The notes: a model not told the origin generated them from the letters alone. A DNA stretch of 63,098 nt from Candidatus Parcubacteria bacterium (GCA_041169145.1 JBEEJO010000001.1:1-63098), one strand, 5' to 3'; positions 7,341 to 10,589 are shown, counted from the first letter of the stretch. A program made the numbers and translations.

Positions 7341-8858
7341 TTACATGCCTTTCAGGATATCTATCCTCGCGCCAAGCTTGTTCAACCGGTTCACGAGATC
7401 TTCATATCCGCGATTGATGGAATACACGTTCCGCAGAATGGACGTACCGCGCGCGGCAAGCATGCCGATCAACACGATAACTGCCGGGCGAAGCGCGGGC
7501 GGACAAACAACTTCCGCACCGCGAAGCTCCGTCGGGCCCTCGATATAGACACGATGCGGATCCGCAAGAATGATGTTCGCATTGAGCTTCGCGAGTTCCA
7601 TATAGTAGATGGCGCGGTTCTCGTAGACCCAATCGTGAATGAGCGTCGTTCCTTTCGCTTGCGTCGCAACGGGCACGAAGAACGGCAGATTGTCTATGTT
7701 CAGCCCGGGATACGGCTGAGCGTGAAGTTTCTCTTCAAGCGCAACGAGTTTGGACGGAAGGGTCTTGATATCAACAAGATTCGCCTCGCCGTTCCGGGCC
7801 TTATATCGGCGCAGGATCTTGTACCGGAATCCCATCTTCTCGAGCCTTAACAATTCCATCTCCAAGAAATCAATGGGGCATCGTTCAATGGTAAGCGATG
7901 AGCGAGTCGTCGCGGCAATGGAAAGGAAGAGCATCGCTTCGATGGGGTCCTCGCTCGGCTCGTATGCGACATCTGCGCGAATATCACGCTTGCCATGCAC
8001 GGTCATTGTGGTCGTTCCGATGCCATCCACGCGCACGCCGAGCTTCTCGAGGAACCGCGCAACATCTTGCACCTGATAGTTCGCTGAGGCGAATTTAATG
8101 ACGGTCTTGCCCGGCACGCGCGCGGCGGCCATGAGCGCATTTTCCGTCACCGTATCGCCGGCTTCGTACAGCACAATATCGGCAGGGCGAAGCTTTGCAG
8201 CGGTGATGTGATAGTTGCCTTTCGTCGCAGAGATCTTCACGCCAAGCTTTTCTAATGCGAACAGATGCGGACGCACCGTCCGTCGGCCAAGCCGACAGCC
8301 GCCAGGATACGGTATGGCAAATGCCTGCAGTTCATGGATAAGCGGACCCATAAGCATCAGGACGCTCCGCGTTTTTATCGCCGATGCGATGTTCAATCTA
8401 TCCATCCGAAGCGTTTTTGGAGGAACGATCTCCACGTCGCTTTGGCCCGACCAGCGAACCGTAACGCCGATGGATTGGAGCACTTCTATCACCCGGTTCA
8501 CTTCTTCGATTTTCGGCATATTGCGAAGCGTCGTCTTGCCGCGGTTCAAGAGCGATGCGCAAAGCAACCCAACCGCCGAATTTTTTGATGTGTTCACGCG
8601 AACCGTGCCGGAAAGCTTCCGCCCGCCCTCGATACGGAAGCTCATCGCGCCGGATGACAGCGTGATGATATTGCGCTTCAATACGCGGCCGATCTTTGCG
8701 AGCGTCTCGGTCGTGAAATTCTGCTCACCCTTTTCCATTCGCGCAACGGCACTTTGGCTCGTGTGCAAAGCCTTTGCTAACTCCTCTTGCGTCATTCCCG
8801 CATGTTCGCGAAGCGTTTCTATAAATCTGCCGATCTGTATTTGTTCTTCGGTTTTCAT
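7341..8858 (-). CDS. murA: XRE-type HTH domain fused to UDP-N-acetylglucosamine 1-carboxyvinyltransferase
   Basis: Residues about 10-65 (MTQEELAKALHTSQSAVARMEKGEQNFTTETLAKIGRVL) form an XRE HTH. The rest aligns with MurA, including the PGGCRLGRR catalytic Cys loop and the C-terminal INRGYEDLVNRLNKLGA. Confidence 0.85.
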   Translation of the reverse strand: MKTEEQIQIGRFIETLREHAGMTQEELAKALHTSQSAVARMEKGEQNFTTETLAKIGRVLKRNIITLSSGAMSFRIEGGRKLSGTVRVNTSKNSAVGLLCASLLNRGKTTLRNMPKIEEVNRVIEVLQSIGVTVRWSGQSDVEIVPPKTLRMDRLNIASAIKTRSVLMLMGPLIHELQAFAIPYPGGCRLGRRTVRPHLFALEKLGVKISATKGNYHITAAKLRPADIVLYEAGDTVTENALMAAARVPGKTVIKFASANYQVQDVARFLEKLGVRVDGIGTTTMTVHGKRDIRADVAYEPSEDPIEAMLFLSIAATTRSSLTIERCPIDFLEMELLRLEKMGFRYKILRRYKARNGEANLVDIKTLPSKLVALEEKLHAQPYPGLNIDNLPFFVPVATQAKGTTLIHDWVYENRAIYYMELAKLNANIILADPHRVYIEGPTELRGAEVVCPPALRPAVIVLIGMLAARGTSILRNVYSINRGYEDLVNRLNKLGARIDILKGM

Positions 8859-8864
8859 ATAAAT

Positions 8865-8893
8865 AGCATATCACATATGATATATTTGTTCAA
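8865..8893 (-). promoter_or_regulatory. promoter TTGAAC-17-TATGCT placed 6 nt before the murA ATG (leaderless geometry)
   Basis: Plus-strand gttcaa at 8888-8893 and agcata at 8865-8870. Only ataaat lies between the -10 and the start codon. Confidence 0.55.
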
Positions 8894-9264
8894 TGATGCA
8901 CGAGGAACCCCGTGCGGTCGCAGTTATGGATATGCTTGCAACCGGATCGCCTCTGTGGTACTGTGCGTGACGGTTCGTTGTAACGGCTTCCGGTCGGCAA
9001 ATGCGTTTCGGGTCCCGCCTGAGCGCGCCCGCCCCCGTTCGCGACGGGAGGGAATGTGCTCCCCTACAGCGCACTATGCATATCGCAGGACGTTCTGCGA
9101 ACCAGCCGGCCGTGCCCTCACAAGGGGTACTCCACTCCCTAAGCCGTGGATGGGATGGGCTCATAACCCGCCATCCGCGTCAATCGGAGGAAATGCCGGT
9201 CTTCATCATCCCTACAAATACATTACCCCCAGAAGCAGTCGCTTCTGGGGTGCGTTCTTTTTTT
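8894..9264 (+). ncRNA. candidate structured non-coding RNA of unknown class (about 370 nt)
   Basis: 420-bp gap without a credible ORF. Extended -10 (tgaTATATT, 8878-8886) at the left end, many local GC hairpins, and an intrinsic terminator at the right end on the plus strand. Confidence 0.35.
9227..9264 (+). terminator. rho-independent terminator
   Basis: Stem ccccagaagc/gcttctgggg with loop agtc, followed by tgcgttcttttttt. Confidence 0.7.
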
Positions 9265-9278
9265 GGGCAAAACAAAGC

Positions 9279-10589
9279 CTAGCCGTATACGCGGGAATGG
9301 ATGTACTCCCCCAACTCAGCGATGGCGACGCGCTCCTGTTTTGCCGAATCGCGATCGCGGACGGTCACGGTATCCTTCTTTTCACCGCCGTTCTCTCCGA
9401 GCGTGTCGAAATCGACCGTAATGCAGTATGGCGTCCCGATCTCGTCCTGGCTGTAGTATCGCTTGCCGACATTTCCCCTATCATCCCATGCGATCATGAA
9501 CCGCTTGCGGAGATCCGTATAAATTTCCTTGGCTTTTCCCACTAACGCCGGTTTATTCGCCAAGAGCGGAAATACGGCGGCTTTATATGGCGCGAGTCGA
9601 GGTTTGAGTTTCAAGACCAGCCGGTCACCGTCTTCGGCATAGGCGCCGCATAAAACAGCAAGCACCGAGCGATCAACGCCCCAGGTCGGTTCAATGACAT
9701 GCGGATAGAACGCATCACCCTCCTCTTCTTTATAGGGCGGTTCTTTGAAGTGATTCTTGAGATCGAAGTCCGTACGATATGCCAAACCGTAGAGTTCATC
9801 TCGGCCGAACGGATATTCATATTCGAAGTCGATCGTCCGTTTCGAGTAGTGCGCCAGTTCGCTCTTTGGAACATCGAGTTCGAAAACGTTGTCCTTGATA
9901 TTCAATCCAAGATCGTTCTTCATCCAATCAAACATCTCTTCGCGCCAATGCTCGAACCATCGTTCCCACTCCTCGGGACGAATGAAATATTCTATCTCCA
10001 TCTGCTCGAATTCACGCGTCCGGAAAATGAAATTGCCAGGTGTTATCTCGTTTCGGAATGCCTTGCCGATCTGCGCGATGCCAAACGGGAGTTTCCGGCG
10101 AGTGGTATCGAGAACATTCTTAAAATCGACGAACATCGCCTGAGCCGTTTCTGGTCGGAAATATACGATGTTCGATCTTTCTTCCGCAGGACCAAGAAAG
10201 GTTTTCAGCATCAAATTGAACTGCTTAGCCTCAGTGAACGAATCCTCCGCCTTGCAATTCGGGCACGATCCCTTCGCATCTATTTTGTCAGCGCGGAATC
10301 TTTCATGGCATTGCTTGCATTCAACGAGCGGATCGGAAAACGTGGATAAATGCCCGCTCGCCTCCCATACTTTCGGGTTCATAATGAGCGCCGCATCAAT
10401 GCCAACGATATCGTCGCGCCGATGCACAAAACGCTCCCACCACGCTTTCTTGATGTTGTTCTTAAGCTCCACACCCAAGGGACCGTAGTCCCACGAATTC
10501 GCAAGACCGCCGTAAATTTCCGAACCCGGATACACGAATCCCCGGCGCTTTGCCAAACTCACGATCTTCTCCAAGGTCACCGATTCCAT
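9279..10589 (-). CDS. glyQS: glycine--tRNA ligase (single-chain alpha2 type)
   Basis: RRGFVYPGSEIYGGLANSWDYGPLG, FRNEITPGNFIFRTREFEQMEIEYF (class II motif 2), and a C-terminal anticodon-binding domain. Confidence 0.93.
   Translation of the reverse strand: MESVTLEKIVSLAKRRGFVYPGSEIYGGLANSWDYGPLGVELKNNIKKAWWERFVHRRDDIVGIDAALIMNPKVWEASGHLSTFSDPLVECKQCHERFRADKIDAKGSCPNCKAEDSFTEAKQFNLMLKTFLGPAEERSNIVYFRPETAQAMFVDFKNVLDTTRRKLPFGIAQIGKAFRNEITPGNFIFRTREFEQMEIEYFIRPEEWERWFEHWREEMFDWMKNDLGLNIKDNVFELDVPKSELAHYSKRTIDFEYEYPFGRDELYGLAYRTDFDLKNHFKEPPYKEEEGDAFYPHVIEPTWGVDRSVLAVLCGAYAEDGDRLVLKLKPRLAPYKAAVFPLLANKPALVGKAKEIYTDLRKRFMIAWDDRGNVGKRYYSQDEIGTPYCITVDFDTLGENGGEKKDTVTVRDRDSAKQERVAIAELGEYIHSRVYG

Follow-up and report, generated by a model that had tools for sequence, protein, structure and literature searches.

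A probable stand-alone structured RNA gene beside the operator of an HTH-MurA gene in a Patescibacteria lineage

Introduction

raiA, OLE, ROOL and GOLLD are orphan structured noncoding RNAs (ncRNAs) of bacteria that were found by comparative genomics, and oligomers have been reported for some of them. Control of cell-wall precursor synthesis by small RNAs (sRNAs) has a precedent in GlmY and GlmZ, and the imitation of tRNA arms by other RNAs is represented by the thrS operator and the tRNA-like domain of YrlA. The Patescibacteria are ultra-small bacteria whose tiny genomes have little regulatory capacity, and almost no ncRNAs are known from them apart from the universal ones. Here we analyze a putative ncRNA gene, designated RNA A, in a 63,098-nucleotide stretch of DNA (hereafter, the window) from Candidatus Parcubacteria bacterium (GCA_041169145.1 JBEEJO010000001.1:1-63098), in which a first-pass annotation had proposed a structured plus-strand RNA extending from promoter to terminator at positions 8894-9264.

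The comparison with homologs indicates that positions 8971-9264 of the plus strand are probably a stand-alone, single-copy structured ncRNA gene of ~294 nt. Its product may act in trans. The analysis showed where this predicted gene begins and ends, which of its strands is transcribed and how its RNA folds, as well as the lack of a conserved open reading frame (ORF) and a very narrow distribution. RNA A matches no catalogued family and is apparently an undescribed RNA of a few closely related Patescibacteria.

Results

Promoter, fold and terminator are conserved among RNA A homologs

RNA A lies in the 420-bp non-coding gap (8859-9278) between glyS and a gene encoding a MurA protein with a helix-turn-helix (HTH) domain, a gap that the first-pass annotation had already described at this size. 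BLASTN searches with the gap against 60 relatives returned no match, and homologs were reached through close MurA and GlyRS proteins and the contigs that carry them. Alignable copies were found at the same glyS-murA locus in three further species: L152 (ENA ERZ27254767; MurA 89% identical to that of the window), L153 (Logan SRR12687606; MurA 86%), whose RNA copy is identical in L177 (JGI 3300037851), and L176 (Logan SRR19238515). The four RNA A sequences share 61-77% pairwise identity and differ by many 1-2-nt insertions and deletions (indels), yet they retain invariant blocks of 13-16 nt. A covariance model of RNA A with 235 positions (R1; core 8971-9212) scored L152, L153 and L176 at 253, 230 and 130 bits, respectively.

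The features of RNA A and of its promoter in the homologs are as follows, in window coordinates unless another sequence is named:

8936-8941 and 8959-8964, plus strand: P2, the predicted sigma-70 promoter of RNA A (TTGCAA, 17 nt, TACTGT), recognized in the four homologs
L152: counterpart of P2 (TTGTAA, 16 nt, TATGAT)
L153: counterpart of P2 (TTGCAA, 17 nt, TACCAT)
L176: counterpart of P2 (TTGTAA, 16 nt, TACAAT)
8972-9103, plus strand: domain 1, an irregular 132-nt hairpin with helices H1-H5, from RNAalifold and pair counts
9105-9200, plus strand: domain 2, a three-way junction, from RNAalifold and pair counts
9105-9110 with 9195-9200, plus strand: H6, the closing stem of domain 2 (GCCGGC/GCCGGU)
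9113-9132, plus strand: H7, a short variable hairpin in domain 2
9135-9189, plus strand: H8-H9, the long arm of domain 2
9157-9169, plus strand: GGGCUCAUAACCC, a hairpin of three G-C pairs around the 7-nt loop CUCAUAA at the end of the long arm, without variation among the four homologs
9201-9226, plus strand: single-stranded pyrimidine-rich tail, with CUUCAUCAUCC at 9201-9211 and a spacer of variable sequence behind it, left unpaired by the consensus fold
9227-9264, plus strand: Rho-independent terminator, a 10-bp stem with a 4-nt loop (9227-9250) and then UGCGUUCUUUUUUU to 9264

On MAFFT alignments of three sequences, RNAalifold predicted 74-83 pairs, 12 of which were double-compensated. In the four-sequence model alignment (A4), the consensus fold comprises 74 pairs in nine helices, and 92.8% of the cells pair. 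Changes on both sides were observed for 17 of the 74 pairs (nine in H1-H3 and eight in H7, H8 and H9), compared to 7.7±2.0 in column shuffles, none of which reached 17 in 500 trials, and controls in which the partners were slid by 1-3 columns yielded 1-6 double-change pairs. The first-pass annotation had suggested that homologs be aligned and inspected for covariation, and compensatory changes are indeed seen in the four homologs; taken together, the covariation evidence for the predicted fold is solid but not overwhelming. All five hairpins that the annotation had listed can be found in the sequence. Only cccg/cggg (H5) and ggatgg/ccatcc (H9), however, belong to the conserved fold; among the others, gcacg..cgtgc falls in an extension specific to the window and tcgcag/ctgcga competes with the long-range helix H1.

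The hexamers of P2 are kept in all four sequences, with a free spacer between them, and the conserved sequence CGG(U/C)UCGUU starts 6-7 nt past the -10 (at 8971 in the window), from which we infer an RNA A start near 8971. The terminator, which ends 15 nt from the glyS stop codon, is likewise kept in the four homologs as a G+C-rich hairpin, its stem showing compensatory changes, with a U run behind it, and its earlier description as a strong plus-strand intrinsic terminator at 9227-9264 is borne out by the stem and the U run. RNA A hence presents the general hallmarks of a stand-alone structured ncRNA gene, with its own promoter and terminator kept in homologs and a fold kept by compensation. 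The proposal of a structured plus-strand RNA spanning promoter to terminator is supported by these conserved hexamers, terminator and compensatory changes, with its limits revised from 8894-9264 to ~8971-9264. The start at 8894 gives way to one near 8971, behind the promoter that is common to all homologs, although a longer form of ~370 nt, with ~78 nt added at the 5' end and originating at an upstream promoter (P1), is possible.

Plasticity of the glyS-murA locus

Both BLAST and the covariance model identify RNA A as single copy in its own genome (0.81 Mb [814 kb] in 73 contigs, 91.6% complete), and BLAST of RNA A against this genome revealed no paralogue and no rRNA-derived piece. R1 matched only the window, L152, L153/L177 and L176. 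It had no match in 124 other genomes of the family (with stricter filters above 40 genomes), and nhmmer and R1 detected no copy in two relatives of the genus, G001 and G003. A motif pattern based on the anticodon-type hairpin at the tip of the long arm found none in GTDB representatives or IMG/VR viral contigs. A dispersed REP- or MITE-like repeat was rejected as an explanation, given that there is one copy per genome and that the version in G001 is also single copy in that genome. RNA A is similar to such repeats in being a G+C-rich structured intergenic sequence directly after a gene end and in having variable stems with some constant tips, but it differs from them in that it is single copy, has a promoter and a terminator of its own and occupies the same locus in four species.

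The order from glyS to murA is kept across the family, with a gap of 10 to ~670 nt among relatives, and within the genus the locus is strikingly plastic. G001, whose MurA is 90% identical to that of the window, and G003 have RNA-like units with interiors that are unalignable to RNA A. They share with RNA A the promoter type (judged by eye), the closing stem, a terminator in plus orientation and the motif GCCGG-N4-5-CAUCAUCC, and the skeleton of domain 2 is also predicted for them. G002 and G004 have short gaps without such an RNA unit. In L070, L150 and L151 the gap contains a different structured RNA (module B), apparently driven from the promoter embedded in the murA operator, and in L153 and L177 module B and RNA A occur in tandem. 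The module was delimited as follows:

L150:46-331, L070:2213-2497 and L153:396-700: module B, ~250 nt, unrelated to RNA A

Blocks including CCUGCCCUCGUGCGUUGGGAG are conserved in module B, which also has a plus-sense terminator of its own and compensatory-looking changes in predicted stems.

This pattern raises the alternative that RNA A belongs to a mobile or defence element, as a part or a relic of it. The gap would then be a cassette site at which unrelated structured RNAs (types A, A', A'' and B) replace one another, and RNA A would have a selfish or conflict-related role instead of one in housekeeping regulation. The rapid turnover is in line with such a site, since L152 keeps RNA A and G001, with a MurA of nearly the same identity, shares the closing stem, tail and terminator only, while L070 and L150 carry module B and L153 carries both RNAs. 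We nevertheless regard it as unlikely. Neither RNA A nor the G001 version is multicopy in its own genome, no transposase, reverse transcriptase or nuclease gene adjoins RNA A, and the hairpin pattern has no match in IMG/VR. Moreover, the promoter and terminator are of a normal kind and the position is stable in four species.

Flanking genes and the MurA operator

RNA A is convergent with glyS and divergent from the HTH-MurA gene. The former (9279-10589, minus strand, 436 aa) encodes a class II core and an anticodon-binding domain. The GlyRS match of many relatives falls into two or three collinear pieces that share a single open frame of 465-504 aa, and these split matches indicate lineage-specific in-frame insertions near residues 100-105, 205 and 320. 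The gene first labelled murA (7341-8858, minus strand, 505 aa) does encode a full MurA/EPSP-synthase fold, to which an XRE-type HTH domain is fused, so that the product is better described as an XRE-HTH::MurA fusion. Its minus-strand promoter, TTGAAC-17-TATGCT, is followed by 6 nt and the ATG, and the murA mRNA is thus predicted to be leaderless and to require no upstream leader. This reading agrees with the first-pass annotation, which had placed a separate murA promoter 6 nt before the start codon and had not regarded the gap as a murA leader. The following features adjoin this promoter:

8868-8883: palindromic operator ATATCA-cata-TGATAT of the HTH-MurA gene, read from the sequence
8878-8886, plus strand: P1, extended -10 TGATATATT, read from the sequence, with a putative start near 8893
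8887-8935 (49 nt), plus strand: window-specific spacer or 5' extension, with no counterpart in L152, L153 or L176

The operator palindrome, (T)ATATCA-N4-TGATAT(A), overlaps the leaderless HTH-MurA promoter and is found upstream of murA in relatives of the genus. A strict pattern located it in 27 of 68 metagenome loci, at 23-58 nt upstream of murA and up to 171 nt in a few, and it is present upstream of murA in L012, L021, L041, L042 and many of L070-L149. The palindrome contains an extended -10 for either direction: the minus-strand one, TGaTATGCT, belongs to murA, and the plus-strand one, TGaTATATT, is P1 and corresponds to the right half of the palindrome. This symmetry implies autoregulation of HTH-MurA together with a built-in divergent promoter, and the presence of P1 may be a by-product of it. 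The plus-strand extended -10 noted by the first-pass annotation (tgaTATATT) is present at 8878-8886, but P1 is not among the conserved features, P2 being conserved instead. The window-specific extension downstream of P1 holds the hairpin gcacg..cgtgc (8898-8915) and the start of a 25-codon ORF (ATGATG, 8893). In L152 and L176, the operator palindrome is directly followed by C-TTGTAA, which places the -35 of P2 one base off the operator.

An operator that fires both ways could by itself account for plus-strand transcription, in which case the stretch would be a functionless spacer with a terminator that stops antisense transcription into glyS. The palindrome necessarily makes a plus-strand extended -10, plus-oriented terminators recur beside the glyS stop in G001, G003 and L070 though the sequences differ, the length of the gap ranges from 10 to 670 nt among relatives, and the fold predicted from the single sequence is not above chance. 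A spacer, however, would not be expected to keep 74 pairs through 17 double substitutions, nor to keep a second, dedicated promoter or the invariant 13-16-nt blocks. We hence consider such a by-product to be decidedly improbable.

Transcribed strand

Several lines of evidence assign RNA A to the plus strand. The conserved pairs include 46 G·U cells, which fit the plus strand only; when the same pairs are read on the minus strand, where conserved G·U become A·C, pairing drops from 92.8% to 80.2%. The RNAalifold energies (-96 for the plus strand and -84 for the minus strand) point in the same direction. The plus strand also bears the conserved promoter and the U run of the terminator; read on the other strand, the terminator hairpin comes after an A run and has no U run behind it. 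Finally, the HTH-MurA mRNA is leaderless and needs no element of this kind.

These observations also bear on the notion of a minus-strand cis element, which could be a long structured 3' untranslated region belonging to glyS, or else an HTH-MurA leader or attenuator. Both flanking genes are encoded on the minus strand, and the gap therefore also separates them along the direction in which they are transcribed; folding of the entire gap as minus strand gives a z-score of -3.1, and G003 has a minus-oriented terminator just before the murA operator. Without the terminator, however, the z-score falls to -1.0, and in view of the pairing, energies and signals set out above we judge a minus-strand element to be very unlikely.

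Coding potential

The first-pass annotation had reported no ORF in this unit. ORFs do exist mechanically, of 97 aa on the minus strand and of 93 and 252 aa on the plus strand, but none of them is conserved: among the four homologs, the ORFs occupy different frames, with different starts and lengths, and 1-2-nt indels are common. Searches with tblastx found no shared peptide and Pfam no match for the ORFs of the gap. The 25-codon ORF MMHEEPRAVAVMDMLATGSPLWYCA (8893-8970) begins 6 nt past the P1 -10, which is the leaderless spacing seen at murA, and is absent from the homologs.

A small protein gene might be sought in this 25-codon leaderless ORF (ATGATG, 8893), in the 93-aa plus-strand ORF (9001-9282) or in the 97-aa minus-strand ORF (8871-9164). 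The murA-like spacing of the first and the existence of the other two speak for it, but the first lies in the window-specific insert, the 93-aa ORF crosses the terminator, and the variation in frames, starts and lengths, together with the lack of Pfam and tblastx matches, makes any such gene highly improbable.

Comparison with known RNA families

Searches of the gap against Rfam (Rfam 15) gave no match at the gathering threshold, and at E-values up to 10 they returned only chance C/D-box matches (E 0.37 and weaker) on the minus-strand sequence GAUGAUGA. A minus-strand C/D-box or kink-turn reading was rejected because of inconsistent geometry and the wrong strand. The first-pass annotation had weighed a divergent RNase P RNA or tmRNA against a different RNA. 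The first two fall away, since both RNAs are found elsewhere in the genome and neither matches the gap at E-values up to 10, and the evidence fits the third. RNase P RNA (RF00010) has a full-length match at C12:2953-3410 (78.4 bits, E 1.4e-24), and tmRNA (RF00023) is found at C14:6733-7046 (112 bits, above the family cut-off); RNA A is like them only in size class and in its G+C-rich helices. ARAGORN reported no tmRNA or tRNA in 8700-9400, and the tRNA model had no match in the gap at E-values up to 10.

The 6S RNA model (RF00013) has no match in the genome or in the gap. In contrast with the 6S rod, in which the 5' and 3' ends are paired, RNA A is predicted to form two separate domains and to pair its 5' end with the middle of the molecule. 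Models for signal recognition particle (SRP) RNA (RF00169, RF01854) have no match in the gap or the genome either, and in the host genome neither an Ffh M domain (PF02978) nor, above cut-off, a GTPase of SRP54 type (PF00448, a family that would include both Ffh and FtsY) was found. Across 26 genomes from 11 families of the order (the host and 25 relatives), none has RF00169 and none has PF02978, compared to matches in 12-14 of 14 control genomes. There is thus no orphan SRP protein in need of an RNA, which removes the SRP reading. As an observation in its own right, the SRP pathway looks absent from the host genome and the 25 relatives.

ARAGORN finds one tRNA(CAU) in the genome and no initiator tRNA. 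RNA A was rejected as the missing initiator, given that Infernal finds an initiator-type tRNA at C16:6386-6457. This tRNA (38.7 bits) has a C1xA72 mismatch, the loop CCCAUAA (C33), a stem without three G-C pairs, a D loop without GG and the T loop UGCAAUU, and the one other tRNA(CAU) of the genome follows 215 nt downstream of it.

A universal RNA in strongly diverged form (RNase P RNA, tmRNA, 6S, SRP RNA or an aberrant initiator tRNA) is suggested by the similar size, by the lack of detectable 6S and SRP RNAs and of an ARAGORN initiator call in the genome and by the presence in RNA A of the genome's only GGGCUCAUAACCC, but it is scarcely conceivable, as RNase P RNA, tmRNA and an initiator-type tRNA are encoded elsewhere, no SRP protein partner is found, RNA A has no cloverleaf and a universal RNA would have to occur in the 124 family genomes in which RNA A has no match.

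Candidate contact sites and proposed role

Outside the four homologs, the sequence GCCGG-N4-5-CATCATCC is also kept directly before the terminator in the otherwise unalignable G001 and G003 units. The 27 matches of the pattern in 125 genomes fall inside long ORFs, except for the three found at this locus and a pair of unrelated sites (L050, L059). Of RNA A, only the closing stem and the tail recur in the G001 and G003 variants, and they are therefore the best candidates for a common functional site.

A second candidate site is the tip of H9. The DNA 13-mer GGGCTCATAACCC at 9157-9169 is the sole occurrence of this sequence in the 814-kb genome, and the RNA hairpin, with its three G-C pairs and CUCAUAA loop, is identical to the anticodon stem-loop of the classic bacterial initiator tRNA (E. 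coli tRNA-fMet). Initiator tRNAs of relatives in the same order have the loops CUCAUAA or CCCAUAA, and neither the G001 nor the G003 variant contains the GGGCUCAUAACCC motif. The resemblance to an initiator anticodon arm may be taken as a lead.

Searches with this motif turned up two further sequences. A second GGGCTCATAACCC is found in G014, of another genus of the family (L156:1380-1640, G014:C15), in a ~340-nt non-coding stretch between same-strand ORFs with a terminator at its end. The stretch has no Rfam, ARAGORN or R1 match, and it was rejected as a relative of RNA A, one match in 41 genomes being close to chance expectation. The relaxed pattern GGNCTCATAANCC recovered canonical tRNA-Met genes in other families of the order and, within the family, sites mostly inside long ORFs. 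At L173:~1350-1560 on the minus strand (G021:C28), an anticodon arm CCGGA-CUCAUAA-UCCGG and a T arm CCUGG-UUAAAAU-CCAGG occur without an ARAGORN call, and this stretch may be another aberrant tRNA(CAU) of the family.

The apical loop of domain 1, UUCGCGA (9038-9044), holds the palindrome UCGCGA. This palindrome co-varies among homologs (the window and L152 both have UCGCGA, L153 has UUGCAA and L176 retains just CGCG), which suggests dimerization of RNA A through loop-loop contacts. Pairing of a 5' AUGAUG with a 3' CAUCAU, or terminal inverted repeats of a MITE, were tried and rejected, as they are not conserved and L153 lacks the 5' part.

Our tentative proposal, which we hold with less than even confidence, is that RNA A is a trans-acting regulatory or partner-binding RNA. 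It would be transcribed from P2, with a possible second start at P1, and its terminator would shield the convergent glyS from this transcription. Contacts with an mRNA or a protein would be made by the closing stem and tail and, in type A, by the CUCAUAA loop as well. They are proposed as contact sites because they show the strongest constraint, added to the sharing of stem and tail with the G001 and G003 versions, and an unpaired pyrimidine tail beside the terminator would be the usual place of a seed or of a protein-binding site. The back-to-back arrangement with the HTH-MurA gene, and the -35 that abuts the operator in two homologs, make shared control of RNA A and cell-wall precursor synthesis plausible.

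In a more specific proposal, RNA A would be a decoy or adaptor that shows an initiator-tRNA anticodon arm on a long stalk, perhaps dimerizing by its UCGCGA/UUGCAA loop, and that binds the P site of the 30S subunit, an initiation factor, MetRS or an anticodon nuclease. The setting would be a lineage without an anti-Shine-Dalgarno sequence, with leaderless mRNAs and a degenerate initiator tRNA. We deem this quite unlikely; were it true, RNA A would regulate translation initiation in a way new for an RNA, under joint control with MurA.

Discussion

The data presented here argue for a stand-alone structured ncRNA gene at 8971-9264, and several observations have to be weighed against that interpretation. 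The covariation statistics are weak, as they derive from four distinct sequences and from an alignment, A4, that was fitted to the model. The density of hairpins that had initially been taken as a sign of structure is not above chance: the folding-energy z-score of 8890-9226, which excludes the terminator, is -1.0 on either strand, compared to a genome background with a mean of -0.56 and a standard deviation of 1.55, and the G+C content of the gap equals that of its surroundings. With the single-sequence fold within background, it is the homologs, and not the hairpin density, that prove the structure. The P2 -10 of the window, TACTGT, is a poor one that matches TATAAT at three of six positions, and this weakness makes the 5' end uncertain. 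Complementarity searches with the tail, loop and apex gave chance-level matches only, for example at an internal GTG of clpB and in the gene for an ECF sigma factor, and RNA A has no complementarity to the 3' end of 16S rRNA. Lastly, species whose flanking proteins are equally similar have unalignable sequence (G001), another RNA (L070, L150) or none (G002, G004) at this position, and a presence this patchy among such species suggests that the role of RNA A is dispensable or quickly replaced.

If RNA A is a lineage-specific sRNA of minor effect, the finding is a modest one, and RNA A would still constitute a new RNA family. It provides a concrete object for asking how Patescibacteria regulate cell-wall synthesis or translation, adjoining as it does the operator of a MurA enzyme that is unusual in its DNA-binding domain. 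The swift replacement of RNA A by other structured RNAs at the same locus, moreover, amounts to a natural experiment on the birth and loss of RNA genes.

Compared with the systems outlined in the Introduction, RNA A combines features of several. The 13 nt at the tip of its long arm are the same as in the initiator tRNA-fMet arm, with three G-C pairs, a 7-nt loop and CAU at the anticodon position; the arm of the host's own initiator-type tRNA, CAGC-CCCAUAA-GCUG, differs from GGGCUCAUAACCC. Unlike an initiator tRNA, RNA A has no cloverleaf, T arm or CCA end, and its arm extends over ~18 bp instead of 5. With seed-type sRNAs it shares an independent unit of promoter and terminator and a conserved unpaired pyrimidine stretch before the terminator, and with GlmY and GlmZ an association with cell-wall precursor synthesis, in this case through the adjoining gene, whose operator RNA A shares or abuts. 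It is, however, much larger and more structured than seed-type sRNAs, and it has no sequence relation to GlmY or GlmZ. With respect to raiA, OLE, ROOL and GOLLD, RNA A has no Rfam match, is at ~294 nt smaller than most and has a far narrower distribution (four species). Like them, it is predicted to be a stand-alone RNA with a promoter and a terminator, no ORF and a multi-helix covarying fold, and its palindromic loop, a candidate for self-association, recalls the RNA-only oligomers reported for some RNAs of this type.

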